Below are positions 40,772 through 56,998 of a stretch of DNA of 64,000 nt, in pieces (positions within the stretch are counted from its first letter, which is position 1; every line of letters starts with the position of its first letter). Below the pieces are notes generated by a model. The model saw nothing but the letters and a program-made list of their open reading frames with translations, did not search any database and was not told the DNA's origin. Both the position numbers and the translations under genes were made by a program. Origin of the DNA: Candidatus Woesearchaeota archaeon (GTDB taxonomy: Archaea; Nanobdellota; Nanobdellia; Woesearchaeales; DSVV01); assembly GCA_016214075.1 (NCBI GenBank), contig JACRPI010000036.1, positions 2,376 through 66,375 of the forward strand, read 5' to 3'.

Positions 40772-40888
40772 CGTACTGCAAAGTATAAAGTGATTTATAT
40801 GTTTTGTTATAGGAAGTGATATTGATAATCAATGTTTTTCTAGAATCAATTCTAAAAATAATCCATTTGCTATAATTAAGAAAGACAT

Positions 40889-41010
40889 GGGGAGTCTCAA
40901 GGACTGTCAGGCGATTTAAGCAGCAGTAAAGCAAGGAGTAAAAAAACACGCACCAAGAAAAGTAAGAAATGTCAGGGGGACCCATTGCACCAAAGTGCAA
41001 TGGGGGTATT
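40889..41010 (+). ncRNA. Structured sRNA candidate, family S, paralog 1
   Basis: gactgtcaggcgatttaagcagcagtaaagcaa...acgcaccaagaaaagtaagaaatgtcaggggga + hairpin cccattgcacCAAAgtgcaatggg + tattgg U-tract. About 75% identical to 56866..56998. ctataattaag TATA-like box about 25 nt upstream. Confidence 0.35.
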
Positions 41011-41102
41011 GGAAATTATTTTATGAATAGAAATTATGAGATAATCAAAATGAGAAAGAAGAACAAAAAGCATATAAGACATAAAGACAACACAAAACAA
41101 CA

Positions 41103-41795
41103 ATGAAAGAAAAACCGATCATTGAAGTAAAAAACGTCTGGAAAACATATTACATCGGAAAAACACGAGTCGATGCGCTGCGAGGAATATCGCTCACGAT
41201 CAACAAAGGAGAGTTTGTCGCGATTCAAGGCCCTTCAGGATCAGGAAAATCAACGTGCATGAATATCATTGGCTGCCTAGACATGCCAACAAAAGGAGAA
41301 GTGTATTTAGATGGACATGACATTAGGGAGTTTGAAGAATCTGAACTCAGCCTCTTAAGAGGAAAAAAGATTGGCTTTATTTTCCAACAGTTTAATCTCA
41401 TCCACACATTAACAGCAGAAAAAAATATTATGTTGCCGATGATTTTTCAGGGAACAGAAAGAGACATTCAGAAAGAGCGCGCAGCAGAGTTATTGGAGCT
41501 TGTAGAACTCAGTGATAGAAAAGAACATCGTCCTGGAGAACTCAGTGGCGGACAACAACAGAGAGTTGCGATTGCAAGAGCGCTTGCAAATGATCCTGAA
41601 GTATTAATTGCGGATGAGCCGACAGGAAATCTAGATTCAAAGACAGGTGCCTTGATTATTGAATTTTTGAAAGAATTAAATGAAAAAGGAAAAACAATTA
41701 TCATTGTCACGCACGATGAAAAAGTCGCAGAGCAGACAAAACGGATTTTATTGATAAAAGACGGAAAAATTATTAAAGAAACAAAAAAGGAGTAA
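41103..41795 (+). CDS. ABC transporter ATP-binding protein (MacB/LolD-type)
   Basis: 230 aa. Walker A GPSGSGKST, signature LSGGQQQRVAIARAL, Walker B. Confidence 0.9.
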   Translation: MKEKPIIEVKNVWKTYYIGKTRVDALRGISLTINKGEFVAIQGPSGSGKSTCMNIIGCLDMPTKGEVYLDGHDIREFEESELSLLRGKKIGFIFQQFNLIHTLTAEKNIMLPMIFQGTERDIQKERAAELLELVELSDRKEHRPGELSGGQQQRVAIARALANDPEVLIADEPTGNLDSKTGALIIEFLKELNEKGKTIIIVTHDEKVAEQTKRILLIKDGKIIKETKKE

Positions 41796-41800
41796 GCACG

Positions 41801-43078
41801 ATGAACACAATAAAAAAAGGAATACTCATTATAACAATGATGATCATGAGTATAATCATCATGCAAACTGCAACTGCAGACATTCTCGACAGCCCGCACA
41901 TAAACGCAACATTGAGTTATCAGGATCCTGATCCTGTGGATCCAGGAGAGATTGTAGAGTTACGCTTCAGCATAAAGAATGATGGCGCAAGCACAGCAAA
42001 GACAGTAGAGTTCGAGATAGAAGGAGAGTATCCATTGCTCCTTGCGAATGGAGAAGATGAAATTAAATCACTCGGAGACATCTCAGTCTATAATGCGGAT
42101 AAAATTGACACAGGAGAAACAACCCTCAAATACAAATTGATTGTCGATCCAAATGCAGCAGAAGGAGAATATGAAGTCACGTTACGATACAAAACAGAAG
42201 GCGGTGTGAGTAGAGGAAATTGGATAACACTAGATCCGTTTAGCGTTCAGGTGGGTGGAAAAGCGGCAGGTGTCGTGATTGAAGAAACAAGAACAACACC
42301 TGAGCGCGTCGCGCCAGGAGAGAGTGCAGATATTTCTATTATAATCACAAACAATGGAAACACATACATTGAAGACATGACAATCACATTAAACCTACAA
42401 AATACAACAGAGATTGCACCATTGAAAACAAGTAACGAAGTGATTATACGAAATATTAAGGGAGAAGAAAGCAAAGAGGCAAATTTTAGTTTGATTGTCG
42501 CGCCAGATGCTGCAGTGAAAGTGTACAAAATTCCAGTCACGCTCAAATATACAGACCAAAGAAATAATAAGTATGAAAAAAATACCTACATCTCAATCGT
42601 TGTCGACGCAGAACCAGAATATGTATTGAATATTGAAGAAAGTGAAGTCTACGAAGAAGATGTTGCTGGAAATATTGTGGTAAGTCTTTCAAACATCGGC
42701 GTCGCGAATCTCAACTATGCGACACTCACCCTGGAAGAAGGGGAATATTATACGATTCTTTCCAGTGACACTGTATACCTCGGAAATCTTGAAAGCGACG
42801 ATTATGAAACTGCGCAATTCAAAATATATGCAAAGGACTATGTGGAAGATTTGCCATTACAGTTTCGCTTGGTCTATAAAGACGCGTTCAATAAAAATTA
42901 TGACGAACAGATAACGCTGACCACAAAAATGTTCACCTCTTGGGAGGCGAGAAAGTACGGCCTAACAGAAAATGGAACAGGATTTACAACAGTATTGATA
43001 CTTCTTGGAGCTGGAGTGCTTGGATGGTATCTCTGGAAGCGGCATAAAAAAGCGCAAACCAGTCCAAAAACAAAATGA
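41801..43078 (+). CDS. Secreted beta-rich protein with C-terminal TM anchor (S-layer/CARDB-like repeats), ABC-operon associated
   Basis: 425 aa. N-terminal signal peptide, repeated beta-sandwich-like segments, C-terminal TM + basic tail. Confidence 0.45.
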   Translation: MNTIKKGILIITMMIMSIIIMQTATADILDSPHINATLSYQDPDPVDPGEIVELRFSIKNDGASTAKTVEFEIEGEYPLLLANGEDEIKSLGDISVYNADKIDTGETTLKYKLIVDPNAAEGEYEVTLRYKTEGGVSRGNWITLDPFSVQVGGKAAGVVIEETRTTPERVAPGESADISIIITNNGNTYIEDMTITLNLQNTTEIAPLKTSNEVIIRNIKGEESKEANFSLIVAPDAAVKVYKIPVTLKYTDQRNNKYEKNTYISIVVDAEPEYVLNIEESEVYEEDVAGNIVVSLSNIGVANLNYATLTLEEGEYYTILSSDTVYLGNLESDDYETAQFKIYAKDYVEDLPLQFRLVYKDAFNKNYDEQITLTTKMFTSWEARKYGLTENGTGFTTVLILLGAGVLGWYLWKRHKKAQTSPKTK

Positions 43079-44283
43079 GGACAGAAGAAACAACGCTTGC
43101 GTTGTATCAAGATTTAATTGTCATTGCATGGACAAATGTCTGGAAACGAAGATTGCGAAATGGACTTACTGTTTTAGGTATTGTCATTGCGATAACGACA
43201 ATATTCTCATTAGTTTCGATAGGAAATGGATTAGATCAAGGAATACGAAAAGAGTTTGAAGAAATAGGAACAAACAGAATCTATGTCACCTCTTCTGGAT
43301 CAAGCATTACAAGTTTGCAGGGAGGATTAACAGAAGAAGATGTCAAAACATTGGAAAGTATGAGTGAGTTTCTTTGGGTAACTCCCTATCTGCAGGAAAA
43401 AGTCACTGTAGAATACGCGAACAAGAAAAAAGTATTAACAGTATGGGCAACAACAACAGAACAGTTAGAAGAACGCTGGGATGATATTAATTTCGAAATA
43501 GAGTCCGGAAGAGTATTTGTCAGCGGAGAAAAGTATAGCGCCATTTTAGGCTATAAAACAGCGCACGAAATATTTGATAAAGAGATTCATGTCAACGAAA
43601 ATATTATTATCAATGACAAACGATTCAAAGTTGTGGGCATATTTGCACCGATTGGAAACCCTGAAGATGACAGTGTTGTGGAGCTTCCGCTGGATACTGC
43701 GCAGGAAATGTTTGGGAAGGGAGATCAAGTCTCGATTATTGAACTCGTCGTAAAAGAAGGCGTTGATCTGAACGAAGCAGCGGCAAAAGCAACAAGGGCA
43801 TTAGAACGAAAACGAGGAAATGATTTGTTTGAGATAGTAACACCAGACCAATTACTCCAACAATTTTCTACCATCCTTAAAATCATCAATGTGATTCTTG
43901 GGGCAATTGCAGGAATCTCATTAATTGTCGGAGGTATTGGCATTATGAACTCCACTTATACTTCTGTTTTAGAGAGGAAAAAAGACATTGGCATCATGAA
44001 AGCGATTGGCGCGAAAAATAGGTACATTCTTTTTTTATTCCTCGCAGAAGCGGGGTTTCTTGGATTTGTCGGAGGAGTAATTGGAATCGCGTTGGGATTC
44101 ATGATTGCGAAGATGACACAGTTTGGTGCTGCTGCTGCGGGATTCCAAATGCTTGCGGTGGAATTTAATTGGAAAATCATGCTCTTTAGTTTACTTTTTG
44201 CAGTCCTTTTTGGAATTGCCGCAGGAGCATTGCCTGCGCGAGAAGCGATGAAGAAACAAGTAGTGGATGTGTTGAGGAAATAA
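43075..44283 (+). CDS. ABC transporter permease, FtsX/MacB family
   Basis: 402 aa. N-terminal TM, large extracytoplasmic domain, C-terminal FtsX 3-TM region. Confidence 0.8.
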   Translation: MRTEETTLALYQDLIVIAWTNVWKRRLRNGLTVLGIVIAITTIFSLVSIGNGLDQGIRKEFEEIGTNRIYVTSSGSSITSLQGGLTEEDVKTLESMSEFLWVTPYLQEKVTVEYANKKKVLTVWATTTEQLEERWDDINFEIESGRVFVSGEKYSAILGYKTAHEIFDKEIHVNENIIINDKRFKVVGIFAPIGNPEDDSVVELPLDTAQEMFGKGDQVSIIELVVKEGVDLNEAAAKATRALERKRGNDLFEIVTPDQLLQQFSTILKIINVILGAIAGISLIVGGIGIMNSTYTSVLERKKDIGIMKAIGAKNRYILFLFLAEAGFLGFVGGVIGIALGFMIAKMTQFGAAAAGFQMLAVEFNWKIMLFSLLFAVLFGIAAGALPAREAMKKQVVDVLRK

Positions 44284-44284
44284 G

Positions 44285-45475
44285 ATGGTCACACAGCGGG
44301 AATATTATCAATATGTTTGGAATAATATTACAGAAAGAAAAGTACGGTCATGGCTGACAGTGCTTGGCATCATCATAGGGATTGCTGCGATTGTCAGTTT
44401 AGTGACGTTAAGTAAAGGAATGAATACTGCAGTGCAGGATCAGTTTGAAAAAATGGGAATCTCTTCGATTCGTGTTGTTCCTGGAGGATTACATGGTCCT
44501 CCAACAGGATCAATGGGATTTTCTATAGGTTTACAAGAAAAAATTGAAAATGTCAAAGGAGTGGATTATGCAAATCCAGTTCTCATTGATTATGGAACTG
44601 TAAAATCAAACAGAGAAGAAGAAACAGTGATGGTGAATAGTTACGATACGTCGCTCAGTGAGCGCGCGTTTGTCGATACAGATTTGCAAATAGAAGAAGG
44701 GAGATTTTTTGTTCCAGGAGAGCGAGGCAGCATTATTATTGGTTATGATATTGCGTATGATCTGTTTGACAAAGATATTGGAGCGAAAAATTCTGTGTTA
44801 ATTAATGACCAGAAATTCAAAGTGATTGGGATTTTAGAAGAATCAGGCACAGACGCGGATGACAGAATCTACATGGGTCGTGAAGACGCAGAAGTATTGT
44901 TTAACAAAAAAGATGTTGTCAATGTATTTGTCGTCCAAACCACAAAAGGAATGAACGCTGAAGAAGTTGGAGCGAAAATTGAACAGGAATTGTTGAAAAC
45001 ATTGGAAGATGAGCAGTTTGATGTGTTTACCCCTGAGCAATTATTGAAGCAGATTGGCGCGATGATTGGGGTTATTCAACTTGTGCTTGCGAGTATTGCG
45101 TCAATTTCCCTTGTTGTTGGCGCGATTGGCATTATGAACTCGATGTTTACCGCTGTTCTCGAGAGAACACAGGAGATTGGCGTGATGAAAGCGATTGGCG
45201 CGCCGAATAAAACGATTGTTATCTTTTTTATTATAGAAGCAGGGATGATGGGGTTTGCGGGAGGCGCTATCGGAACGCTGGTCGGAACCCTGCTGTCGTA
45301 TGGGGTGCAACTTGGCGCGTATGTCGCAGGCTATAATTTGTTTAAAGTGACGATTGATGTTTCGATGATTGTCTTAACATTGGTGCTTTCGTTTGTGTTA
45401 GGCGCAGCAGCTGGCGCGATTCCTGCGTATCGTGCTGCGCGAATGAAACCGATTGATGCGTTGAGATACGAATAA
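44285..45475 (+). CDS. ABC transporter permease, FtsX/MacB family (second copy)
   Basis: 396 aa. Paralogous architecture to the preceding gene. Confidence 0.8.
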   Translation: MVTQREYYQYVWNNITERKVRSWLTVLGIIIGIAAIVSLVTLSKGMNTAVQDQFEKMGISSIRVVPGGLHGPPTGSMGFSIGLQEKIENVKGVDYANPVLIDYGTVKSNREEETVMVNSYDTSLSERAFVDTDLQIEEGRFFVPGERGSIIIGYDIAYDLFDKDIGAKNSVLINDQKFKVIGILEESGTDADDRIYMGREDAEVLFNKKDVVNVFVVQTTKGMNAEEVGAKIEQELLKTLEDEQFDVFTPEQLLKQIGAMIGVIQLVLASIASISLVVGAIGIMNSMFTAVLERTQEIGVMKAIGAPNKTIVIFFIIEAGMMGFAGGAIGTLVGTLLSYGVQLGAYVAGYNLFKVTIDVSMIVLTLVLSFVLGAAAGAIPAYRAARMKPIDALRYE

Positions 45476-45526
45476 TGTTACATAAAGGAAATATTTAATT
45501 TGAAAGAAGTATAATACAATAATTCT

Positions 45527-45727
45527 AAGAGAAACAGACGCTCGACAAATGCTCGCGTCCTAACGCACAAAGTCTCACAGGAACGTTCGACTTTGTGCGT
45601 TTGTTAAGGCGAAAAATAACAACATGGCGCCGACGCGACGGGGGTTGACCCCTTCGGGGTGTCGCGTAGGACAAAATTAGTAGAATTTTGTCCGTAGGCC
45701 GCCATCGTTGTTGTTATTTTTTGCAAC
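45527..45727 (+). ncRNA. Structured sRNA candidate, family E, paralog 2 (about 201 nt)
   Basis: agagaaacagacgctcgacaaatgctcgcgtcctaacgcacaaagtc ... gccgccatcgttgttgttattttttgcaac. Same helices as paralog 1 with compensatory substitutions (acgcacaaagtc/gactttgtgcgt perfect). Central domain replaced by different hairpins (gggggttgaccccTTCGggg; ggacaaaatt..aattttgtcc). gtataatac TATA-like upstream. Confidence 0.45.
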
Positions 45728-45796
45728 TTTTGATAATTTTTAGACCAAGCGTAAGATCAAGTAAAACATATAAACAAATGGAGTTTCTTTTCTTGT

Positions 45797-45952
45797 ATGA
45801 AATGTGAAGTCTGTAAAGGAACAATTCAACAGCACTTTTTGCAGAAGATTATTGGTACTGTAGTGAAAGACGCGAAAGGAAAAAAGCATACTGTTTGTTC
45901 GAATTGTCAGAAATTGTTGAAAGAGAAGAAGTTGATGTTAGAGAAATTATAA
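45797..45952 (+). CDS. Small zinc-ribbon protein (51 aa), below the ORF-track cutoff
   Basis: Hand-translated MKCEVCKGTIQQHFLQKIIGTVVKDAKGKKHTVCSNCQKLLKEKKLMLEKL. CxxC...CxxC. Confidence 0.4.
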   Translation: MKCEVCKGTIQQHFLQKIIGTVVKDAKGKKHTVCSNCQKLLKEKKLMLEKL

Positions 45953-45959
45953 TTGTATT

Positions 45960-46031
45960 GCCCCCGTAGCATAGTAGCCATTGCGTCGGTTTCGTAAACC
46001 GAAGGTCGTGGGTGCAACTCCCATCGGGGGC
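45960..46031 (+). tRNA. tRNA-Thr (anticodon CGU)
   Basis: Manual fold: acceptor GCCCCCG/CGGGGGC, D-stem GCA/TGC, anticodon stem TCGGT/ACCGA with loop TTCGTAA (anticodon CGT), T-stem GTGGG/CCCAT, T-loop TGCAACT. 72 nt, discriminator T, no encoded CCA. Followed by oligo-T. Confidence 0.7.
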
Positions 46032-46035
46032 TTTT

Positions 46036-46662
46036 TTAATCCTTCAACCTTCTTACTTTCTCTTTACAATATTCTACTTTTGTTTCAGAACCTAAATAAG
46101 TACAGAACGTCTCATCTTCGTTAGAAAGAGCAAACTGTTCTATGCATTTCTCAGAATCATCCCAGACTAGATAATCACTGCAAAATGTTTTTACATCTCT
46201 AAATTCCAAAATTCTATTAAAATATTCATAAGAAAATCCTTCACTATCATAATAAACCATCATCGTATCAAAATCAGTGGTATACATATTCGCAACATAG
46301 GCAATAAAAGTCTCGTCATCAATTTGTTCGAACTTTATTACCATAAAAGACGAGTAATAAACCCAGTATCTACAGACATTGAGAAAAGTCTGTTCATCAA
46401 CTTGTTTTTTATGATCATCAGACATATATTTGTATAATGCATTGCAATCTTCTTTGTTCATATAATAGACAACAGTCTCCGCAAATTGTTCTGCTTGCTC
46501 CGCAATATCATTTTCTGGTTCATCATTTACCCAAAGAGGTTCTTCAACAGTTTCTTGAACAACGGGAACTTCCTTTTCTTCTATACTTTCCGTAATTTCA
46601 GAACCACAAGAAAGAACAAATAAGAGAAGAACAAGCAACAAGCAAAAGAGTTTCTGTTTCAT
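46036..46662 (-). CDS. Predicted lipoprotein, hypothetical
   Basis: Start trimmed to MKQKLFCLLLVLLLFVLSCGSE (lipobox LSC). Acidic Cys-containing mature domain. Confidence 0.5.
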   Translation of the reverse strand: MKQKLFCLLLVLLLFVLSCGSEITESIEEKEVPVVQETVEEPLWVNDEPENDIAEQAEQFAETVVYYMNKEDCNALYKYMSDDHKKQVDEQTFLNVCRYWVYYSSFMVIKFEQIDDETFIAYVANMYTTDFDTMMVYYDSEGFSYEYFNRILEFRDVKTFCSDYLVWDDSEKCIEQFALSNEDETFCTYLGSETKVEYCKEKVRRLKD

Positions 46663-46747
46663 GAGGAGAAGTATATTTGTCTTGTTTAAAAATATAGTGC
46701 CCTTTTCCCCCACAACCATTAAAAACCAACCTGCATTTTTCTCCAAT

Positions 46748-47794
46748 ATGGAACTCAGTAAAGAAACAGAGCAAGTAATACAAAAAGCAGAAATAATCTA
46801 CAAGCAAAACTTCCCATTAACAACCTGCTTCGAAAGAGCGATCTTCTTCAGTTGGTGGTGCGGAATCAATGATTGTGGGTTCTGCTACATGTCCGCGTTG
46901 CCAAAAGATAAAGTAAGCAAAGAGGAATCCATCAGACACGAAGCAAGTATTCTCGCAGAAGTCTGGTTGTGCAAAAAAGTAGGATGGCAAATTGGCTTTT
47001 TTACAGGAGGCATTAACGCGTTTTCAGGAGATAAAGTTCTCGATATGTTAAAAAAGATCAACAAAATCTACGGAAAAGTATGGCTTAGTGTTGGTCCGTT
47101 GGCAAAAACGCAATTAGAAAAATATGCGCCGTATGTTGAAGGAATAGTTGGATCGCTGGAAACAGTGAATGAAGAGATACATAAAAAAGCATGTCCTTCT
47201 AAACCTCTTGCTCCATATTTTCGTATGTTTGATGCAGCACAGGAACTCAAACTAAAAACAGCAATGACGTTTATCATTGGGTTAGGAGAGACAAAAAAAG
47301 ATCTTGCAACAATAAGAGAAGTCATAGAACGATATCATATTTCTAAGATTCATATCTATGGACTTATTCCGCATGAAGGAACAATGTATGCGAATGCACA
47401 ACCTCCAACTGCTGATGAACAAGCATGGTGGATTGCACAAATACGCATTGCATATCCAACACTCGATATTCAGTGCGGCATTTGGAGTGATCGTACAGAG
47501 AGAATTTCAGTACTGCTTCGCGCAGGAGCAAATAGCATCTCCAAATTTCAAGCGATTAAACTATTCGCGACAAAACCTGCGCAGGACATTGAAGCGCAGG
47601 CGAAGATTGGAGGAAGAGAGTTTCTTGGTTCCCTCACCAAACTTCCAGAAATCAACATCAACGAAATCGATGATTTTGGATTTGACGAAGAATTAACAAA
47701 GAACATTAAGAAAAAAGCAGAACAATATCTCAAACTCATGAGACGAAATGTCGAGCATCCAGAGAGAACGCAGTTGATTCAAATTCATGAATGA
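46748..47794 (+). CDS. Radical SAM protein of the BioB/HydE/HmdB-like class with apparent Cx4Cx2C cluster motif
   Basis: Start trimmed to MELSKETEQV. Motif region FSWWCGINDCGFCYMS (codons tgc gga atc aat gat tgt ggg ttc tgc). TIM-barrel-like remainder resembles biotin-synthase-family proteins. Confidence 0.55.
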   Translation: MELSKETEQVIQKAEIIYKQNFPLTTCFERAIFFSWWCGINDCGFCYMSALPKDKVSKEESIRHEASILAEVWLCKKVGWQIGFFTGGINAFSGDKVLDMLKKINKIYGKVWLSVGPLAKTQLEKYAPYVEGIVGSLETVNEEIHKKACPSKPLAPYFRMFDAAQELKLKTAMTFIIGLGETKKDLATIREVIERYHISKIHIYGLIPHEGTMYANAQPPTADEQAWWIAQIRIAYPTLDIQCGIWSDRTERISVLLRAGANSISKFQAIKLFATKPAQDIEAQAKIGGREFLGSLTKLPEININEIDDFGFDEELTKNIKKKAEQYLKLMRRNVEHPERTQLIQIHE

Positions 47795-49248
47795 GTATTC
47801 CATTTCTTACTTCTTCCAACTGCATCTTTCCATTTGTTGTACAACTTCTCTCTTTTCTCGAAAGGCATCGTAGAAACAAATTCTTTCTCTTGTTGCCAAT
47901 ATTGTTGTATTTCATTCTGATCCTTCCAAAATCCAACAGCAAGTCCCGCTAAAAACGCAGCGCCAAGCGCAGTAGTCTCTCTATTTTTAGGAACAACAAC
48001 CTGTGCATCAAGTATATCTGCTTGAAATTGTAATAAAAAAGAGTTCGCAGCAGCGCCGCCATCTGCTTTCAAAGTAACAACAGAAATCCCTGCTTCTTTT
48101 TGCATTGTTTCCACAATATCTTTTGTTTGATACGCGATGCTTTCGAGTGTTGCCCGTACTATATGCGCAGGAGTAGTGCCGCGAGTCAAACCAATAAGCA
48201 TTCCTCGCGCGTCTGGATCCCAATACGGACAGCCAAGCCCGCTCAGTGCAGGAACAAAATAAACTCCATCATTCTCTTTCAAAGAATCCGCAAGCACTGC
48301 GGTCTCTTCAGCAGAGGTAATAATCTTTAATCCATCCCGCAGCCATTGCACAGCGGCGCCTGCGATAAAGACACTTCCTTCAAGAGCATAAGATGTTTTC
48401 TGATTAATAGTCCATGCAATAGTGGTTAGAAGATTTTGAGAAAGAACAGCTTTCTCTCCAGTATTTAATAGAAGAAAACAACCAGTGCCGTAGGTATTTT
48501 TGAGCTGTCCAGAAGAAAAACAACATTGCCCAAACAATGCTGCTTGTTGGTCACCTGCAATCCCTGCAAAAGGAATTTGTAAACCATCTATTTCCATGTG
48601 TCCATAAATTTCAGATGATTCCTTCACGACAGGGAGCAGTGTTTTATCAACAGAAAAAAGCCGCAATAATTCCTCATCCCATTGTTTTGTGTGAATATTA
48701 AAGAGCATTGTTCGTGACGCGTTGCTCATATCGGTAACATGTACTTTTTCTCGAGTCAAATTCCAGACAAGCCAACTATCTATTGTCCCGCAGAGAAGAT
48801 CTTCTATATTTCCGCCAACATGGTTCAAGATCCATTCTATCTTCGTTGCGCTAAAGTATGGATCACACACAAGCCCTGTTTTTTCTTTGATTATTTTTTC
48901 ATATCCTTCTGTCTTCAATGCATGGCAACGCTCTGTTGTTCTCCGACATTGCCAAACAATTGCCGGATGAACTGGCTTTCCAGTCTTCTTATCCCAAACA
49001 ACAACAGTCTCTCGTTGATTCGTAATGCCGATAGCAGCAATCTCTTTTGGAGAAATAGGTTCAGTTATTTTTCTTATCAATTGCTTCGTTTTAAGAATAA
49101 GCTCTTCAGGATCATGTTCTACCCAACCAGGCTGTGGATAATATTGCTGTAATTCCGCGTACGCTTTTGCAATTACTTCTATTTGCTTATTGATGAGGAG
49201 TACTGTTACTCCCGTCGTACCAGCATCGATAGAAAGAATATAAGACAT
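47785..49248 (-). CDS. glpK: Glycerol kinase (FGGY family)
   Basis: 487 aa. N-terminus MSYILSIDAGTTGVTVLLI, FGGY motifs, GlpK length. Confidence 0.88.
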   Translation of the reverse strand: MSYILSIDAGTTGVTVLLINKQIEVIAKAYAELQQYYPQPGWVEHDPEELILKTKQLIRKITEPISPKEIAAIGITNQRETVVVWDKKTGKPVHPAIVWQCRRTTERCHALKTEGYEKIIKEKTGLVCDPYFSATKIEWILNHVGGNIEDLLCGTIDSWLVWNLTREKVHVTDMSNASRTMLFNIHTKQWDEELLRLFSVDKTLLPVVKESSEIYGHMEIDGLQIPFAGIAGDQQAALFGQCCFSSGQLKNTYGTGCFLLLNTGEKAVLSQNLLTTIAWTINQKTSYALEGSVFIAGAAVQWLRDGLKIITSAEETAVLADSLKENDGVYFVPALSGLGCPYWDPDARGMLIGLTRGTTPAHIVRATLESIAYQTKDIVETMQKEAGISVVTLKADGGAAANSFLLQFQADILDAQVVVPKNRETTALGAAFLAGLAVGFWKDQNEIQQYWQQEKEFVSTMPFEKREKLYNKWKDAVGRSKKWNTHS

Positions 49249-50047: not shown

Positions 50048-50065
50048 AGTAAAGTAAAAAACACC

Positions 50066-51838
50066 TCAACTATAATAAAGCTTTCCTGCTGCTTTCTGTT
50101 CTCGATCTTTGTAAGAATCTTTTTTGTTAATGCGCGGTCGATGGCTAAACTCATCTCGTCGAAGAGAAATCCCTAAATGAGAAAGCAAGGTATTCATCCC
50201 TTGTTCCATCGAAAATGGTCCAGCTGCTTCTCCTGCGACAGCAGGCTGGCCAGAAAACACGAGTAATTTGTCAGAGACATAATCAAGGAACAGCAGATCG
50301 TGGTCAACAACAAGAACAGAAACCCCTTTCATCTCCACAAAATAGCGAATCACTTTAGAGACAGCAAGGCGCTGTTCAACGTCAAGATACGCAGAAGGCT
50401 CATCCAACAAGACAAGATGTGCTTTTTTACTGAGCGCAGCTGCAATCGCAACACGCTGTAATTCTCCTCCGCTGAGTTCATTGAGTTGCTTTGAAAACAA
50501 CGGAATGAGATCAAGGGGCTTAATGATTTCCTGCGTATAGTTGGAGATCGCCTCAGCTAATACCTGCTGGACAAGATCATCAGAAGTACTATCAAGATAT
50601 TGTGGTTTGTAGGAAACAGTCACTGCGGTATCAACCTGTCCAGCGTCTGGAGCAAGGACACCCGCAAGCATTTTAACAAAAGTGGTTTTTCCAATACCGT
50701 TCTCTCCTAAAATTCCGACAACAAGGTGTCTATGTAACTCCCCTGCGTGAGCAACCAGAGAAAATCCGCCTTGCTTTTTCGTAAGTGTTGGCCATGACGT
50801 TAAAACAGAGCGAGTGGTAATATCAAGCGGCGCTTTCACATCAAATTGAATTTTTGAATCACGGAACCGAACGTTTTCGCCAGGAAGATGACCCGAGAGG
50901 TAAATGTTGATTCCTTCTTTGGAAGAGGTCGGCTGACTCACCACCCCAAAACTTCCTTCTTTTCCATACATGATGTGGAGAAGGTCGGTCATATAATCCA
51001 GAGAAATAAGATCGTGTTCAATAACAAGAACAGAATTTTGTGATTTCACTGGATCAGTAGGATCAACAAGAGATCGAATAATTTCCGCAACCTTGAGGCG
51101 CTGTTTGATATCAAGATACGACGTTGGTTCATCAAAGATATAGAGATTCGCTTTTTTCAAAAGCGTTGCTGCGATAGCGATGCGCTGTAATTCGCCGCCA
51201 GAGACTTTGTCAATCGGCGTGTCAAGAAAGTGACCAAGAGAAAGAGAAGTAACAACATCCTGCAATTTTCCTGTTTCATTAACTTTGTCTAATAATTGCC
51301 GAACAGTTCCTTGAAATGATTTTGGAATAAGGTCAACAGCTTGCGGTTTATAGGCAACTTTAATCGCTCCTGCTTTCACTTGTTCAAAAAAGCGCTGCGC
51401 TTCTGTGCCTTTGAAATAATTGACAATATCTTCGTGCGTCGCGTCATGATCCAAACCCAAATTTGGTTTATGAACGCCTGCTAAAATTTTGAGTGCGGTA
51501 CTTTTTCCAATCCCGTTCTTCCCAAGGATTCCTACAATTTTCCCAGGAATAGGGACAGGAAGAGAAAAAAGGACAAATTTGTTTTCGCCGTAGCGATGAA
51601 TAGGTTGTTGATTGAACGCTTCAGGAAGATTAATGATATCAATCGCGTCAAAAGGACATTTGTGCACACAGATCATGCACCCAATGCAGAGTTCTTCGCT
51701 AATCCCTGCTTTGCCATCTTCCGCTTTATGAATGCAATCCTCTCCTTTGCGGTTGATAGGGCAGTATCTAATGCAGAGAAAGTTCCCGCAGCCTTCAGGG
51801 TTGCAGCGGTCTTTTCGAATGATTGCGATACGTTTCAT
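50066..51838 (-). CDS. abcE1: ABCE1 / RNase L inhibitor (ribosome recycling factor)
   Basis: 590 aa. N-terminal double 4Fe-4S ferredoxin (CNPEGCGNFLCIRYCP; CIGCMICVHKCP) followed by two ABC NBDs. Confidence 0.92.
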   Translation of the reverse strand: MKRIAIIRKDRCNPEGCGNFLCIRYCPINRKGEDCIHKAEDGKAGISEELCIGCMICVHKCPFDAIDIINLPEAFNQQPIHRYGENKFVLFSLPVPIPGKIVGILGKNGIGKSTALKILAGVHKPNLGLDHDATHEDIVNYFKGTEAQRFFEQVKAGAIKVAYKPQAVDLIPKSFQGTVRQLLDKVNETGKLQDVVTSLSLGHFLDTPIDKVSGGELQRIAIAATLLKKANLYIFDEPTSYLDIKQRLKVAEIIRSLVDPTDPVKSQNSVLVIEHDLISLDYMTDLLHIMYGKEGSFGVVSQPTSSKEGINIYLSGHLPGENVRFRDSKIQFDVKAPLDITTRSVLTSWPTLTKKQGGFSLVAHAGELHRHLVVGILGENGIGKTTFVKMLAGVLAPDAGQVDTAVTVSYKPQYLDSTSDDLVQQVLAEAISNYTQEIIKPLDLIPLFSKQLNELSGGELQRVAIAAALSKKAHLVLLDEPSAYLDVEQRLAVSKVIRYFVEMKGVSVLVVDHDLLFLDYVSDKLLVFSGQPAVAGEAAGPFSMEQGMNTLLSHLGISLRRDEFSHRPRINKKDSYKDREQKAAGKLYYS

Positions 51839-51928
51839 GAAGTTTGAAAAATGAAGGTTTGTATATAAATGTTACTTGAACTTCGTGAGAGTATTTGAGA
51901 TAGACAAAAAATAAAGAATGAAATAAGA

Positions 51929-52345
51929 TTAATTATAATAAATAAGAAGGATAAGAGCAATATTATCTGGACCTTTAATTACTAAACGACAACCTGAATC
52001 AATTTTTACTTTTTTATGTTGTATTTTTATGTGTAGCTGAAAAATATCTTCTATACCTGGAGGCAGATAATATGTTCCATTAGTACTATGATCAGTATAA
52101 AAAAGAGAACGCTTGGAAGTGGAGAATATGCCTAATATTTTTTCATGCTCAAATTGTAAATGTCCATGGTTGTTACTTACAAAAGGATAGTTGATAAAAA
52201 CATCATTTGCTTTTGCTCTTCCAAGGGTAATGATTTCATCAGTAACCTCAGGAAATGTAAAAGAAGGACTTCCATATAAATGACCATATGATTGGATCTT
52301 ATTATTGTGATTAATATATACTGCAATTCTAATTTCATTAGTCAT
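51929..52345 (-). CDS. FHA domain protein
   Basis: 138 aa. ITLGRAKANDVFINYPFVSNNHGHLQ...YTDHSTNGTYY matches FHA core motifs (GR, SxxH, NGT). Confidence 0.6.
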   Translation of the reverse strand: MTNEIRIAVYINHNNKIQSYGHLYGSPSFTFPEVTDEIITLGRAKANDVFINYPFVSNNHGHLQFEHEKILGIFSTSKRSLFYTDHSTNGTYYLPPGIEDIFQLHIKIQHKKVKIDSGCRLVIKGPDNIALILLIYYN

Positions 52346-52360
52346 GAGTAATCACAATGC

Positions 52361-53440
52361 CTACCGCGTCACTTCAAACCCTTTAATCTCTTCATACATC
52401 TTCATAATTTTTTTGTCATCATGCAATTTCTTACGTACAGGTTCTAACAACAAATTCAAATTCTCCGCGACAGCGTTCTTCAAATCCATAGGATGCAACG
52501 CGCCAGAAGCATAAATCTCTTCCAATGCAGAATAGCTGCCAATCGTCAAATTGCCCCCAAACTTCTCTGGTCGTTTGATCGCAATGGAGTCAACTTTTTC
52601 AAAAATAATGTATTTGCAGTATTCGAGCATAGGATTTTCAACAATTTTCTTTTCAGGACAATACGCCTTGCGAATCTTTCGTTCCACATCTTCCTTCGAA
52701 TCAAGCATAAAAATCGCAGTGTCTGGTTTTGACTTAGACATCTTAAGAGCAATGCCGCGTTCAGCGCCTTCAAGTCCTTCTTTTGGCGGCTCCCCAAGAC
52801 CCATGAGCATATGATGACTAACAATAACAGGTTTCCAGAATCCAAGCTTCTCACCAACCTCGCGAGCAAGAACATTGACTTTCCGTTGATCCATGCCGAG
52901 CTGGCAAATATCAGCGCCTAAGTAGAAAATATCAGCAGTCTGCATACAAGGATAAAATATCTGAGAAGCATAAAGCGCGTCTTTCTCAGAACGCCCCATA
53001 ATTTCCACAGTGCGAAGCATGCGTTGTAATGTGCTCGAGCGCGCGACGTTCATCACCATTTTCCAATAATTCGTGTCTTTTGCAAGATCAGAAGCCCAGA
53101 CAAATTCCACATGCTTCATATCCATATCGCATGCTTTCCACACTTCAATGTAAAATTGACCTACTTTCTGAATTTTCTCAAGATCCCCCCCCATTTTGTT
53201 GTTTGCCCACGCGTGCCAATCAGCAACGAGCATCTTGAATGTGCAGCCAGCGGCAGTCATTTTGTTAATGTTAATAGCGCGTAATAATCCTTGTGCGATA
53301 TGAATGCTTGTTCCGCTCGGTTCAAATCCATCATACGCAACAGGATGTGGTTTTTTCTCAAAGAGTGTTTTCAGTTCATCATCAGTAAGAATTTCTTCAC
53401 CAACACCTTTGACCAAATCAATTTTTTTCTGAATGACCAT
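52361..53440 (-). CDS. tyrS: Tyrosyl-tRNA synthetase, archaeal type
   Basis: 359 aa. AYDGFEPSG..HIAQG (HIGH-like), KMSKSKP, KAYCP, RPEKFGGNLT, LHPMDLKNAVAE closely parallel archaeal TyrRS (M. jannaschii-type). Confidence 0.85.
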   Translation of the reverse strand: MVIQKKIDLVKGVGEEILTDDELKTLFEKKPHPVAYDGFEPSGTSIHIAQGLLRAININKMTAAGCTFKMLVADWHAWANNKMGGDLEKIQKVGQFYIEVWKACDMDMKHVEFVWASDLAKDTNYWKMVMNVARSSTLQRMLRTVEIMGRSEKDALYASQIFYPCMQTADIFYLGADICQLGMDQRKVNVLAREVGEKLGFWKPVIVSHHMLMGLGEPPKEGLEGAERGIALKMSKSKPDTAIFMLDSKEDVERKIRKAYCPEKKIVENPMLEYCKYIIFEKVDSIAIKRPEKFGGNLTIGSYSALEEIYASGALHPMDLKNAVAENLNLLLEPVRKKLHDDKKIMKMYEEIKGFEVTR

Positions 53441-53502
53441 ACAAGCAAGCAGGTCACTCGATTATATAAAGCTTTTTATACCAAGAACACTAGGAAAGAG
53501 CA

Positions 53503-54240
53503 ATGGAACAGCCATTAATTATCTTTGACAAAATCAGCAAGCAGTTTGGAGAAAAAAAAGTAATCAATGATCTCACGCTTTCCATCCACAAAAACGAAAT
53601 TTTTGGGATTATTGGAAAAAGTGGCGCAGGAAAAAGTACCCTGCTAAAAATGTTGATTGGCTTCTATAAAGTAGATGCGGGAAAAATCATCTACCATGGG
53701 AAAAACATTACAAATAACACCGCGTCCATGAAACAAATTGTAGGCTTTTGCACGCAGGAAAATTCTTTTTATCCAGAACTCACCGTGGAAGAAAACCTAA
53801 ACTATTATGGAAGGTTATACGGCTTAGATGGACGGGAATTAAAGAAAAGAAAAGACGAGCTTTTAGAAATTGTTGCATTGAACACAAATAGGTTCTCCCC
53901 CGCAAATACACTTTCAGGAGGAATGAAGCGCAGGTTAGATTTTGCAATTTCACTCATCCATTATCCACAACTCTTAATCCTTGATGAACCCACAACAGGG
54001 CTTGATCCCATTACAGAAAAAGCAATTTGGGATCTTATTAAAGAGCTTTCCGCGAGAGGAATATGTATTCTCGTCATCTCGCACACACTTGATTTTGTGG
54101 AAAAATATTGCAACACAGTGGGTTTTCTTGCGGCGGGAAAAATTATTGTTACTGCGAGTCCTGCTGCGTTGCGAAGAAAATATCCGCATAAAGAAACCTT
54201 TGCAGAAGTCTTTCAAGAAGTGCTTGAGGAGTACGCATAA
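53503..54240 (+). CDS. ABC transporter ATP-binding protein (ABC-2 type)
   Basis: 245 aa. Walker A GKSGAGKST, signature LSGGMKRRL. Confidence 0.88.
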   Translation: MEQPLIIFDKISKQFGEKKVINDLTLSIHKNEIFGIIGKSGAGKSTLLKMLIGFYKVDAGKIIYHGKNITNNTASMKQIVGFCTQENSFYPELTVEENLNYYGRLYGLDGRELKKRKDELLEIVALNTNRFSPANTLSGGMKRRLDFAISLIHYPQLLILDEPTTGLDPITEKAIWDLIKELSARGICILVISHTLDFVEKYCNTVGFLAAGKIIVTASPAALRRKYPHKETFAEVFQEVLEEYA

Positions 54241-56000
54241 TGGGACTGGAAAAACTCTATTTTATCATCCAAAAGAATCTACGATTAGTTTTTAGAAATT
54301 GGATGACCTTCCTCCTTTTAGTTCTCGGTCCAATGCTGCTTATTCTCGTCGTTGGATTTGCGTTTAGTGGCGATGATCTGCATGATATTTCAATAGGAGT
54401 CCATGCGCCAAAAGATGCGGAAATTCAAGAGGTCGTTGATGCGCTTGCGTCAGAAGAAATTTCCATTGTCTACTTTCCAAGAATTGACAACTGTATTCGC
54501 GCGATGAATCATTCCATAATAAATATCTGCGCGGATTTCTCAGAAGATTTTGGAGATGGAGAAGGAAGCATCACGTTTTACTATGACGCGACAAGATACA
54601 ATCTCGTACGATATATTCTTGAATATCTCAAAGAACAAGTTGCGATCACCAGTGAGCAAGTCAGTTTGGAAACTGCGGAACAGATTTTTTCAGACATTGA
54701 TAGTTTCGTCACCGATATGGAAACAGGACAACAACAGGTGCATGACTTAAGAGACAATGCGCTCCTGCTCCAACAAGATCTCATCAGAGCGCATGAAGAA
54801 GTGAAAGCTGCGCAAGACGCGTTTGATCCATCTTATTATAAAATAAAGAGATTGCAAGCACAGCTCAACGCGACAGTGCTGAATTACAGCGAAACGTATG
54901 CGGAAACAGCAAATGTTACCGAAGTTATTGATGACCTTGCTCTTCTTGAAAGCAGCATCAATTCCCTCAATGCAAGCCTCCACTCTGTTGAAGCAGCATT
55001 GACGATGTCAGGAACACAGTATAATAGATCAGTGTTTACAAAAGCGTATGAATCAATGGACAAAGCAGCAAGCGAGCTTGAAAGCACCATTGCCTCTTTA
55101 CACACAACAGAAGATCTGGAAAACCTCACTATGGCACAAACAGTGGATCTTCTAGAACAAATAAATGAAATTGTAGGCTATCTTGATGATGTGCACCAAA
55201 ATCTTGCAGACACAGAACTCCTCCTCAGAAGTCACATAGAAAATATAGACACTGGAGTTACAAATCTCGATGGTCTTTCTGCGTCATTTGACACCTACAT
55301 TGAAACATTTTCTGGAATTAATCAATCAGACGCGGAAAAATTCCTGCACCCATTAACCGCGACGTTTGAACCAATTCCTACAGATGCTGAAGAAAATAAA
55401 ACTGCGATTGTCTTCCCAATCATTCTTGTCTTTATGATGAGCTTCATTTGCATTTTGTTGTCAAACATGCTTGTATTGAACGAAACGCACAGCCCTGCAT
55501 ATTTCAGAAATTTCCTTGTTCCAGCGCCTGCAGTGTTTTTTATCCTTGGAATTTTTATAACAAACCTCATCCTTGTTGGATTCCAGTTAGGAGTATTTTT
55601 TGTCGTTGCGTATCTGAGTTTTGGAGTTTCATTTTTTCTGAATCTTCCAGTATTTTTGAGTGCAGTCTTTATAGGCACCGTGTTCTACATTTTGGTAGGA
55701 ATGTTGTTTGGATATGTCGTGCAAGACAGGCAAACATCATTGCTCTTCAGTCTCTTTTTTTCGTTGATTATGTTTTTCTTTTCGGATGTTATCTTTCCGC
55801 TGGAAATTATGCCCCCTGCGGCTGCGATGATTGCGCAGTTTAGTCCATTGGTATTGTTAGAAGGATTGTTCCGTCAGACCCTTTTCTTTGGTCATGGAAT
55901 CACAGAGCAGTGGTTCGGCTTTACTGCAATAGGGTTGTATAGCGGCGTGTTGGCGTGTTTTGTGATTGCGGCGTATTATTGGAATAGAAGAATGAAATAA
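54240..56000 (+). CDS. ABC-2 family permease with large extracytoplasmic coiled-coil domain (YhgE/Pip-like)
   Basis: 586 aa. N-terminal TM, about 350 aa helical ectodomain, C-terminal multi-TM ABC-2 region. Confidence 0.7.
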   Translation: MGLEKLYFIIQKNLRLVFRNWMTFLLLVLGPMLLILVVGFAFSGDDLHDISIGVHAPKDAEIQEVVDALASEEISIVYFPRIDNCIRAMNHSIINICADFSEDFGDGEGSITFYYDATRYNLVRYILEYLKEQVAITSEQVSLETAEQIFSDIDSFVTDMETGQQQVHDLRDNALLLQQDLIRAHEEVKAAQDAFDPSYYKIKRLQAQLNATVLNYSETYAETANVTEVIDDLALLESSINSLNASLHSVEAALTMSGTQYNRSVFTKAYESMDKAASELESTIASLHTTEDLENLTMAQTVDLLEQINEIVGYLDDVHQNLADTELLLRSHIENIDTGVTNLDGLSASFDTYIETFSGINQSDAEKFLHPLTATFEPIPTDAEENKTAIVFPIILVFMMSFICILLSNMLVLNETHSPAYFRNFLVPAPAVFFILGIFITNLILVGFQLGVFFVVAYLSFGVSFFLNLPVFLSAVFIGTVFYILVGMLFGYVVQDRQTSLLFSLFFSLIMFFFSDVIFPLEIMPPAAAMIAQFSPLVLLEGLFRQTLFFGHGITEQWFGFTAIGLYSGVLACFVIAAYYWNRRMK

Positions 56001-56160
56001 GAGTTGCACACTCAGGAGTTACTTCCGTCAATCATCTCCCGAAGGATCAGCTGGTGTTCACATCATCATCGTGTGCAAGAGAGAGTCTTGTTCTAATGTT
56101 TATAAATTTTTGTTGGGAGTTTAGATATATTTATTAGGAACAAAACAAATTCTATCCTCT

Positions 56161-56805
56161 ATGATAAATCTCATTATGAATGCGGATGACCTTGGGATGA
56201 GTAAAATGTTCAATAAATCAATATTGAGTTTAATAAAAGAAGAAAAGATAAACTCAACATCAGTATTAGTAAAGAGGATTACAGAAGAGCAAAAAGAGCA
56301 AGTAAAAGAGCTCATCAATCTCTCCAAAAAAATGAAAGTGAGTATAGGGCTTCACCTCGATTTTGAAAGCACTGATTATAATACGCAAATAAATACACAA
56401 TTTAAGAAGTTCCAACAAATCTTCAATGCTAATCCAAGTCACTTAGATATTCATAAAGCATCAACGTGGAAAGAGAGTATTCCTCTTGTCGCAGAGTTTT
56501 GCAGACAAAAGAAATTGCCTTGTCGTAATAAAGGAGGAACGAGTAAATACTGGAAAACAACAGATGCTCCTGCGTTTCATGGAACAACAGATAATTTTGA
56601 AGATATAGAGAATTGGATAAAAACATTAGAAGAAGGAAAGTGGTATGAAATATTGTTCCATCCTGGAATGTATGATCCTAACTGCAAATCGAGCCTCAAT
56701 AAAGAAAGAGAACTGGATACGAAACATATACACAAACTCCATTCCATATTGAAGAAGTATAACATTAAGTTAGTCAGCTATCATGACGTAGCAACTGCTC
56801 ATTAG
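56161..56805 (+). CDS. YdjC/ChbG-family carbohydrate deacetylase-like protein
   Basis: 214 aa. MNADDLGMS...SVLV...GLHLDF mirrors the YdjC NADDFG...HL.L motif. Confidence 0.6.
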   Translation: MINLIMNADDLGMSKMFNKSILSLIKEEKINSTSVLVKRITEEQKEQVKELINLSKKMKVSIGLHLDFESTDYNTQINTQFKKFQQIFNANPSHLDIHKASTWKESIPLVAEFCRQKKLPCRNKGGTSKYWKTTDAPAFHGTTDNFEDIENWIKTLEEGKWYEILFHPGMYDPNCKSSLNKERELDTKHIHKLHSILKKYNIKLVSYHDVATAH

Positions 56806-56865
56806 AATAATTTTAAGAAGTATGAGAAGGAAGAAAATTTCTGAAAAAATAATTCAAAATAGATT

Positions 56866-56998
56866 GGGGATTCAAAAAGACTGCTGAGCGATTCAAACAG
56901 CAGTAAGGCAATAGTTGCTCAGCAACACACAAGATACGCGCACCAGCAAAAGTAAAAATGTCAGGGAGACCCATTGCGTCAGCAATGGGGTTTTATTG
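56866..56998 (+). ncRNA. Structured sRNA candidate, family S, paralog 2
   Basis: gactgctgagcgattcaaacagcagtaaggcaa...acgcgcaccagcaaaagtaaaaatgtcagggaga + hairpin cccattgcGTCAgcaatggg + ttttattg. Convergent-gene spacer. Confidence 0.35.

Follow-up and report, generated by a model that had tools for sequence, protein, structure and literature searches.

The 64 kb window examined here (the whole stretch of contig DNA that was analysed, 64,000 nucleotides) comes from a Woesearchaeota (DPANN) archaeon and contains two similar intergenic sequences, hereafter family S. They raise the question of whether such a pair represents copies of a small RNA (sRNA) gene, a dispersed repeat, a regulatory element of the adjacent genes or an overlooked small protein.

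Two homologous intergenic copies

The two intergenic regions were homologous by blastn within the 64 kb window (E 2.5e-10, ~75-79% identity) and showed a mean column identity of 79% across ~200 columns in the MAFFT alignment, in agreement with an earlier note on this DNA that had claimed a duplicated intergenic element. The conserved words quoted there were recovered, GCGATTYAARCAGCAGTAA occurring twice in the window vs 0.04 expected and AAATGTCAGGGNGACCC twice vs 0.24 expected, and no third copy was detected by blastn inside the window. The homology itself stood but the reported starts did not, as the true starts lie at ~40865 for copy 1 and ~56840 for copy 2, about 25 nt further upstream; the TATA-like boxes noted before both copies form part of the homologous region. 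The gene context was as previously described, with copy 1 located between the divergent genes for a 200-aa protein (40169-40771, minus strand) and an ABC ATPase (41103-41795, plus strand), and copy 2 between the convergent YdjC-like (56161-56805, plus strand) and PAN (57049-58191, minus strand) genes. Searches of the whole window against Rfam 15 returned only 5S rRNA and tRNA-Thr at the gathering threshold, and permissive scans of both copies gave chance matches only (E 2.5-7.9, far under the thresholds).

On the plus strand, copy 1 possessed an AT-rich TATA-like box (CTATAATTAA, 40870..40879), which is a conserved column block of the alignment, followed by a GC-rich box (GGGGAGTC, 40889..40896) predicted to lie at -11..-4 of an inferred start and so to be present in the DNA only. 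This GC-rich box is the first of two GGNGATTY direct repeats with a spacing of 21 nt. The predicted RNA of ~110 nt would occupy 40899..41012 (CM R1 match 40889-41012, 122.6 bits) and includes a 5' block conserved in the alignment (CAAGGACTGTCAGGCGATTTAAGCA, 40898..40922), a conserved 3' block predicted to be single-stranded (ACACGCACC..AAAAGTAAGAAATGTCAGGGGGA, 40946..40980) and the terminal hairpin (CCCATTGCAC-CAAA-GTGCAATGGG, 40981..41004), with no proper U-run behind it.

Copy 2, also on the plus strand, lies in a spacer of 243 nt between the YdjC-like stop codon and the PAN stop codon (56806..57048). It contained the same succession of an AT-rich TATA-like box (AAATAATT, 56847..56854), a GC-rich box (GGGGATTC, 56866..56873), a conserved 3' block (ATACGCGCACCAGCAAAAGTAAAAATGTCAGGGAGA, 56934..56969) and a terminal hairpin (CCCATTGC-GTCA-GCAATGGG then GTTTT, 56970..56994), and its predicted RNA of ~120 nt, again with an inferred start, would span 56876..56998 (CM R1 match 56866-56997, 146.7 bits). 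Judged from sequence, each copy is thus a self-contained cassette of ~110-120 nt, made up of a promoter-like box, an A-rich body and a strong end hairpin.

A promoter-like 5' module shared with other small units

A distance of 21-22 nt separates the AT-rich box from a conserved AAGGACT motif downstream of it, a spacing in agreement with that of three control promoters of the window, belonging to the 5S gene (TTTATAAA, 22 nt to G1), the 200-aa gene (21 nt) and the ABC ATPase gene (24 nt). The geometry of these three controls leads to a predicted start at AAGGACT; for copy 1, initiation is predicted at the A's of this motif and the 3' end just past the hairpin. The predicted start is flanked by two GGNGATTC direct repeats.

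The AT-rich box, GC box and AAGGACT..GCGAWT also headed four further small units of the window (444-512, plus strand; 19244-19178, 36111-36048 and 60692-60625, minus strand), as well as one in the locus L001, with bodies unrelated to family S. The alignment of this module comprised 12 units with at least four different bodies. A sequence-only model (R2) scored 11 module units at E 3e-7 to 5e-17 in the searched loci, ten of them being training sequences and the other L026, the same site as the training member L012; R2 newly finds a unit at L026 2203-2259. The pattern CAAGGACT-N4-7-GCGAW occurred three times vs 0.02 expected. These alignments show the promoter and 5' block to be a module, re-used by this lineage ahead of other small units, as would be expected of a promoter together with the first stretch of its transcript. 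The module qualifies as a re-used ('mobile') promoter, defined by a highly similar promoter region before non-homologous sequences, and promoter re-use has been documented in prokaryotes (PMC3575422).

Copies and empty sites in relatives

Further members of the family were found at L011, L012/L026, L017, L018, L024 and L027, and the family is known from six distinct sequences in a narrow clade. JGI 3300031576/Ga0247727, ENA ERZ4903137 and ERZ27254754 are examples of element-bearing samples. Orthologues of copy 1 were present in four relatives, and one relative carried its copy between the rpS15 gene and a convergent wHTH gene. Family S therefore occurs in three unrelated gene contexts (ABC operon/200-aa gene, divergent; YdjC/PAN, convergent; rpS15/wHTH, tandem/convergent), which makes a cis role bound to one neighbour unlikely.

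Other close relatives had clean empty sites at both loci, with the flanking genes retained. When filled sites (window, L024, L012) were aligned with empty ones (L019, L022, L025), the whole segment missing from the latter mapped to 40810..41058 (plus strand), ~250 nt between TTTTGTTA and the ABC promoter region, and in L002, a relative at 93% identity, a spacer of only 2 nt separates PAN and YdjC. No copy was found in ~90 kb of relatives whose PAN was 86% or whose 200-aa neighbour protein was 81-82% identical. Close strains differ in having or lacking the cassette as a whole, which shows the element to be dispensable and variable in copy number. It is a discrete unit, multi-copy and strain-variable. 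Downstream of copy 1, the ABC operon has a promoter of its own (CATATAAGAC), which is identical in element-less relatives. Because relatives without the unit retain both the flanking genes and this promoter, copy 1 is not merely a segment of some obligatory ABC 5' UTR, the outcome that the earlier note had named as contrary to its own proposal.

Conservation along the element was concentrated in blocks. The promoter, the 5' block (AAGGACT..GGCGATTCAAG), the 3' block (TGTCAGGGGGACCC, ahead of the hairpin) and the hairpin were near-invariant, and the middle varied through indels; this blockwise pattern appears to exceed drift after recent copying. Over the whole element, orthologous copies had an identity of 73-74%, modestly higher than the 53-76% of the flanking spacer.

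Such a distribution may also be produced by a dispersed intergenic promoter/terminator repeat that is spread and lost by recombination, has no RNA function and owes its conservation to recent copying, the main competing explanation and a possible but rather doubtful one. Consistent with it are the patchy occurrence at both loci among relatives with 80-97% identical neighbour proteins, the unrelated insertion carried by the element's spacer in L020/L021, the three assemblies (L017, L018, L027) that stop inside the element, as assemblies do at repeats, the modular build with an optional 13-nt block, the promoter module common to unrelated bodies, and an identity little above that of the flanks with zero covariation. 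However, neither terminal inverted repeats nor a target-site duplication are conserved in the family (a 17-nt, 82% AT-rich inverted repeat and a 9-bp direct repeat, GATAATCAA, flank copy 1 only and are missing from L024), its copies are few (two in 64 kb and none in the ~90 kb of relatives), and its 5' and 3' blocks are invariant where the middle and flanks diverge. Neither is the hairpin found apart from the full unit, as CCCATTGC-N4-8-GCAATGGG had no occurrence outside full copies in the archaeal loci examined, and no family member linked it to phage records, plasmid records or viral contigs.

Two specific repeat classes were rejected. A MITE or other non-autonomous transposon does not fit inverted repeats that are weak, AT-rich and different between copies, nor a direct repeat that is not conserved in L024, and a REP/BIME-type repeat does not fit a palindrome that, in the archaeal loci examined, was confined to complete family-S units. 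The 83 palindrome-only matches in viral contigs were attributed to chance; none occurred with the family, and the best (L059) lay inside coding sequence. Scanning metagenomes for the 3' block recovered two true members and four unrelated GC-rich matches. Scanning the GTDB representative genomes with GCGATTNAANCAGCAGTAANGC gave two chance bacterial matches only, a result silent on the family's true range, this pattern being too strict and matching, among the family copies examined, those of the window only.

Terminal hairpin, body structure and 3' end

Both copies do end in a strong hairpin, a perfect stem-loop of 10 bp with loop CAAA in copy 1 (arms 40981-40990/40995-41004) and of 8 bp with loop GTCA in copy 2 (arms 56970-56977/56982-56989). 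The covariation previously ascribed to it was not recovered: eight stem pairs were invariant over all complete-hairpin copies, no pair changed on both sides, and copy 1 differed from the others only by a 4-nt apical insertion giving two more pairs. As this insertion adds apical pairs, it represents a difference in stem length and not a compensatory substitution.

The description of the element as structured was likewise restricted to its end, as RNAalifold on five sequences backed the terminal hairpin only (consensus -8.7 kcal/mol, covariation term +1.76). No covariation-supported structure was found in the element, and shuffle controls were not exceeded. Folded as single sequences, copy 1 had a z-score of -1.5 and copy 2 one of -3.3, the latter because of a stem unique to copy 2. 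Copy 2 has an optional internal stem (TGCTGAGCGATT with AGTTGCTCAGCA, 56882..56924, plus strand; inverted repeat I3), whose 3' arm lies inside a 13-nt insertion that copy 1 does not have; the G-U pairs of the internal stem function on the plus strand only. As a conserved body structure, this candidate stem (helix 1, GGCGAUU/AGUUGCU) was rejected, having 93% of cells paired and zero both-side changes and being missing in copy 1 and L011.

The U-tract reported behind both hairpins was present in copy 2 (GTTTTATTG) and absent from copy 1 (GGTATTGG, not flagged). With terminator-like sites defined by a GC-rich stem-loop and, no more than 2 nt behind it, five or more T in eight, copy 2 was the top site within 40000-59999 and L011 also qualified on reading the sequence, whereas copy 1, L012 and L024 did not (GGTATTGG, GTTATTAT and GTTATTGG, respectively). 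Since these three have no U-run, they may lack a discrete 3' end, and transcription could continue into the ABC operon.

A cis element acting on the neighbouring genes, as a bidirectional terminator or insulator in copy 2 and L011 and as an ABC leader or attenuator in copy 1, appears unlikely. Copy 2 and L011 do sit between convergent genes, and on the minus strand a TTTTT follows within 12 nt of the copy 2 hairpin, itself 60-75 nt beyond the PAN stop codon. Copy 1 is furthermore co-oriented with the ABC operon and has no U-run of its own. Against such a role, ~100 nt of conserved upstream sequence and a promoter-like box would be superfluous for a terminator, no gene reads into copy 1 from either side, the ABC promoter is located downstream of the element and is the same in relatives without it, and L002 manages with virtually no spacer between PAN and YdjC. 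Hairpin terminators were not enriched in this genome either (21 sites vs 16 +/- 5 in shuffled sequences).

Coding potential

The element might instead encode a small protein, either an antisense hydrophobic peptide (MGPPDIF...) or a sense ORF of 45 aa whose end overlaps the ABC ATPase start codon. An ATG-initiated antisense ORF is indeed present in all copies, and the 45-aa sense ORF occurs in copy 1 and L012 and corresponds to a JGI gene call (L026 9666-9803). The antisense ORFs, however, measure 18, 30, 33, 53 and 110 aa and are shifted out of frame between copies by indels, and the sense ORF has a length of only 13 aa in copy 2 and of 7 aa in L011. Comparison of the 45-aa ORF between copy 1 and L012 gave eight amino-acid differences vs one synonymous change, substitutions read from the aligned sequences showed no third-codon-position bias, and no similar called protein was found in a set of 5.8 billion proteins with the antisense-ORF alignment as query. 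Coding potential was consequently rejected on both strands, as neither ORF length nor frame is conserved; the small-protein explanation is highly improbable and already largely refuted.

A candidate trans-acting small RNA

The reading we favour, with a probability of roughly 0.45, is that each copy may be the gene of an sRNA that is transcribed independently and probably acts in trans, the family being confined to a narrow Woesearchaeota clade. The earlier proposal of an independent small transcription unit stands in part: the AT-rich box of its own, the hairpin end, the three gene contexts, the absence of the entire unit from close relatives and the lack of a conserved ORF argue for it, and the covariation and the copy 1 U-tract dropped out. 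According to this model, an archaeal TATA-type box would set the transcription start at the conserved AAGGACT, ~21-24 nt downstream of it, yielding an A-rich, largely unstructured transcript of ~110-120 nt. A perfect GC-rich hairpin of 8-10 bp would end the transcript, marking or stabilising its 3' end, and the U-run of copy 2 would additionally terminate transcription. The functional parts would be the two conserved single-stranded blocks, AAGGACU-N-GGCGAUUCAAG at the 5' end and UGUCAGGGGGACCC just before the hairpin, through both of which the RNA may act in trans, either pairing with mRNAs or binding a protein. The plus-strand A>T skew was 0.52 in copy 1, 0.39 in copy 2 and 0.29-0.52 across copies, exceeding that of coding strands.

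Target predictions over the 64 kb paired the 5' block of copy 1 with positions -16..+13 of a metallophosphoesterase gene at 12722 (-32.8 kcal/mol, shuffled minimum -22.9 +/- 2.2 kcal/mol). Copy 2 paired weakly at this site (-24.2), and the 3' blocks had no target outlier within the window.

Several other RNA classes and elements were considered and rejected. A riboswitch or 5' leader does not agree with copy 2 and L011 facing the 3' ends of convergent genes, nor with the ABC promoter lying downstream of copy 1. Box C/D and H/ACA guide sRNAs were dismissed as the six sequences had no UGAUGA box and a perfect hairpin without a pocket, followed by GUU or GGU and not ACA. Inspection of the sequence revealed no matching features or partner genes for a diversity-generating-retroelement template, CRISPR repeats, tRNA halves or replication-origin boxes.

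Comparison with known systems and significance

Intergenic trans-acting sRNAs have been catalogued in the archaeon Haloferax volcanii (PMC5892119). Family S resembles archaeal intergenic sRNAs as an intergenic unit of ~100-150 nt with its own putative TATA-type promoter, no ORF and conserved single-stranded possible seeds, restricted to one lineage. It differs from them in having no sequence or Rfam kinship, and in being multi-copy and strain-variable with a bacterial-looking perfect 3' hairpin. The sRNAs of Methanosarcina are further archaeal intergenic trans-acting examples.

Mobile promoters (PMC3575422) share with the 5' module a near-identical promoter and first ~20 transcribed nt before non-homologous sequences, but the bodies downstream are here mostly tiny and non-coding instead of protein genes, and no associated mobile element was found. 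REP-type palindromes have been reported in bacteria and archaea and also within many sRNAs (PMC12306157). Like REP/BIME, BOX, ERIC and Correia elements, family S is intergenic and modular with a strong palindrome and presence/absence polymorphism, and such elements are often located between convergent genes and can provide promoters or terminators. Family S differs in its far fewer copies, a palindrome that never stands alone, a long asymmetric conserved part, the lack of terminal inverted repeats and target-site duplications, and its archaeal genome. Copy 2 and L011 resemble Rho-independent terminators in their GC-rich stem-loop and immediate U-run, unlike copy 1, L012 and L024, and the conserved unit is much larger than such a terminator. 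Archaeal RNA polymerase stops at oligo-T and does not require a hairpin.

A more speculative extension, which we consider improbable, is that family S may belong, as a single branch, to a larger DPANN small-RNA set defined by a portable promoter and a shared handle serving as protein dock or seed. All members would begin with a common 5' handle, AAGGACU-N4-7-GAGCGAUU, which together with a degenerate repeat before the 3' hairpin would form a docking site for a protein; alternatively, the handle would be a shared 5' seed pairing with AGUCCUUG sites in mRNAs. Landing of the portable module in new intergenic sites would then create new regulators, including small-ORF mRNAs.

Woesearchaeota and other DPANN archaea have tiny genomes and depend on hosts, and our literature search found no described non-coding RNA for them. 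Even as a neutral repeat, family S would matter, as metagenome assemblies break off within it at these loci and it is a source of wrongly called small ORFs in gene calling. If the sRNA reading is true, the family would offer a first handle on post-transcriptional regulation in Woesearchaeota and DPANN archaea, and the re-used promoter-plus-leader module would show how new small transcription units originate in streamlined archaeal genomes.

Sequence and genomic context of family S

Within the window (G+C content of 39%), the duplication of copy 1 (about 40889-41012, plus strand) and copy 2 (about 56866-56998, plus strand) was real at the core, with a mean alignment column identity of 79% and a blastn E-value of 2.5e-10, and the conserved words quoted in the earlier note occurred far above chance. 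The extent proposed there required correction, as both starts lie further upstream, where the two copies have an AT-rich box in common (about 40865 and 56840). No third copy was found by blastn within the window, and no Rfam family matched the element. Pfam annotation agreed with the gene context claimed for both copies. Copy 1 is flanked by the gene of a 200-aa protein without known domain (40169-40771, minus) and by the ABC ATPase gene of a MacB-type ABC operon (41103-41795, plus), and copy 2 by a YdjC-like gene (56161-56805, plus) and the gene for the proteasome-activating nucleotidase, PAN (57049-58191, minus). PAN is archaeal, its nearest relatives being annotated as Woesearchaeota/Nanoarchaeota (DPANN), with best matches 97% and 93% identical.

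Anatomy, predicted start and shared 5' module

Based on six distinct family S sequences, the element comprises an AT-rich box, a GC-rich 8-mer (GGGGATTC), a block (T/A)(C/A)AAGGACT-N-AGGCGATTCAAG, a middle part variable by indels in which GTTGCTCAGCAAC is optional, a second conserved block (ACACGCACC..AAAAGTAAAAATGTCAGGGGGACCC) and a conserved hairpin. The 5' and 3' blocks are alike (AAGGACTGTCAGG versus AAGAAATGTCAGG). In all three window promoters with known or near-certain starts (5S, the leaderless 200-aa gene and the ABC ATPase), the end of the TATA 8-mer lies 21-24 nt before the start. Applied to family S, this spacing would place transcription initiation at the A's of AAGGACT, at about 40899-40901 in copy 1 and 56876-56878 in copy 2; the GGGGATTC box would then occupy -11 to -4, with a near-repeat (GGCGATTC) at about +11 to +18. 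The plus strand of the family also shows a strong A-over-T skew (0.29-0.52), exceeding that of coding strands.

The promoter and 5' block layout recurs in front of unrelated bodies in five other places, which supports both the promoter reading and the plus-strand orientation of family S. Such modules adjoin the 5S gene (444-512, plus), precede, in front of a Sua5/YrdC gene, an 18-aa ORF with a Shine-Dalgarno-like site (19244-19178, minus), and occupy the minus strand (36111-36048 and 60692-60625) of a second repeat family (36069-36130 and 60650-60711). In contigs from relatives, they form a head-to-head pair in L001 (427-491, plus, and 556-490, minus) and occur once more in L026 (2259-2203, minus); the window orthologue of the latter unit (about 49335-49390) appears decayed. 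All share the promoter-like box, the GC-rich 8-mer and the block AAGGACT..GCGAWT with family S, and CAAGGACT-N4-7-GCGAW was observed three times in the window versus 0.02 expected. This recurrence supports a putative promoter with its initial transcribed sequence. Promoter re-use is a documented phenomenon, and the family S module resembles such re-used promoters (PMC3575422).

Hairpin and 3' end

A perfect hairpin closes both copies. The covariation attributed to it was not recovered: its eight stem pairs are identical wherever the hairpin is complete, with no pair changed on both sides, and copy 1 differs only by a 4-nt apical insertion that creates two added pairs. A structured body could not be demonstrated either, as RNAalifold retained the hairpin only, with a positive covariation term, i.e. 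a penalty. The folding z-scores were -1.5 for copy 1 and -3.3 for copy 2, the latter stemming from a helix that uses a 13-nt insertion lacking in copy 1. Of the U-tracts described after the two stems, that of copy 2 stood, with a U-run directly 3' of the stem, and that of copy 1 did not; between positions 40000 and 59999, copy 2 ranked first among the terminator-like sites, and copy 1 was unflagged.

A separate repeat pair (36994-37200 and 45528-45720) was also observed, with 84% identity over its first 101 nt and a long GC-rich stem domain, closed by AACAACATGGC...GTTGTTGTT, that differs in sequence with pairing apparently kept. Its appearance suggests a larger family of structured RNAs, each about 200 nt long, and it had no Rfam match.

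Filled and empty sites among relatives

Scanning metagenomes for the 3' block recovered two true members from the same sample, L012, the orthologue of copy 1, and L011, located in a third context with an rpS15 gene on one side and a convergent winged-helix gene on the other. Further members (L017, L018, L024, L027/L026) lie on contigs reached via homologues of the 200-aa protein. Four other metagenome contigs with a GC content of 54-57% (L013, 1292-1512; L014, 1349-1569; L015, 19-239; L016, 1-165) have in common about 90 nt of conserved sequence (..TGTCGTAGCAACGTCAAT.TGTCAGG.TAACAGCAAAGTAAAAATGTCAGGGTGACA..GGTCCATAGCGGAACCCC.CCCGCTTGCCGT); they were rejected as chance pattern matches to an unrelated conserved element.

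The copy 1 site is empty in L019 (neighbour protein 90% identical), L022/L023 (81%) and L025 (80%), where 12-20 nt replace the approximately 250 nt of the window and both flanking promoters are intact. At the copy 2 site, the PAN-YdjC gap is 2 nt in L002 (PAN 93% identical) versus 243 nt in the window. In L001 (PAN 97% identical), the sequence 3' of the PAN stop codon is unlike that of the window up to the end of the contig, 60 nt further on (4144-4203); with the L002 spacer, this renders the PAN 3' flank hypervariable among near-identical strains. In L020 and L021, the copy 1 spacer is filled instead by an unrelated insertion of 543 nt that contains a 90-aa ORF (4475-5019 and 617-1161, respectively; relative of 82% identity), and this divergent spacer appears to be an insertion hotspot. 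Taken together, presence and absence among relatives indicate that the family S unit is discrete, dispensable, multi-copy and strain-variable.

A purely cis role, as a terminator or an ABC leader, would agree with some of the gene contexts, but it leaves unexplained both the approximately 100 nt of conserved promoter-bearing sequence and the divergent setting of copy 1, and it is contradicted by the retained ABC promoter. The patchy occurrence would also suit a dispersed promoter/terminator repeat without function, as would the modular build, the absence of covariation and the three contigs that end inside the element, a pattern typical of repeats. Against such a repeat, copy number is low, conservation is block-wise, and neither terminal repeats nor target duplications were found. 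A search for links to phages, plasmids or viral contigs found none.

Coding potential

A coding role was rejected, as ORF lengths are inconsistent, the frames are shifted between copies and no protein matches were obtained. Antisense ORFs beginning within the hairpin (MGPPDIF...) span 18, 30, 33, 53 and 110 aa, with frameshifts between copies, and the antisense peptides had no homologues in a collection of 5.8 billion proteins. Sense ORFs measure 7, 13, 45 and 45 aa. The 45-aa ORF (window 40969-41106, plus; L026 9666-9803, minus), which the JGI record lists as a gene, has its ATG in the conserved 3' block, spans the hairpin and the ABC promoter, and ends in a TGA overlapping the ABC ATPase ATG. 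Its two versions differ by eight amino-acid changes versus one synonymous change, which suggests that it is spurious.

Candidate targets and proposed function

The favoured interpretation is that family S would be an independently transcribed small non-coding RNA, with the conserved single-stranded 5' and 3' blocks as its working parts and the hairpin as its 3' end and stabiliser. Scanning start regions in the window with copy 1 gave one suggestive partner, a metallophosphoesterase gene (12722-12090, minus). The predicted duplex covers 29 nt of this mRNA (-16 to +13, within the start region at window 12693-12738) with four mismatches over the first approximately 29 nt of the predicted copy 1 RNA, at -32.8 kcal/mol versus a shuffled minimum of -22.9±2.2. 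Complementarity of copy 2 to the same start was much weaker, and the 3' blocks gave no outlier; the pairing may reflect a target or a coincidence. The 8-mer AGTCCTTG, the complement of CAAGGACT in the 5' block, occurs nine times in the window (12710, 25443, 28182, 30842, 32928, 34771, 36070, 40898 and 60651) versus 1.5 expected with codon bias uncorrected, a count reached in 0 of 100 shuffles. Three sites are the elements themselves and six lie in genes, four of these on the sense strand; one falls at codons 2-4 of the metallophosphoesterase gene. The duplex and the 8-mer excess may both serve as leads only.

Family S is a genuine, lineage-restricted and previously unannotated cassette, and most likely a family of small RNA genes with predicted transcription. 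It joins known classes, either the intergenic sRNAs of archaea or dispersed repeats between genes that carry re-used promoters, and would gain interest if the shared 5' module were a functional RNA handle.
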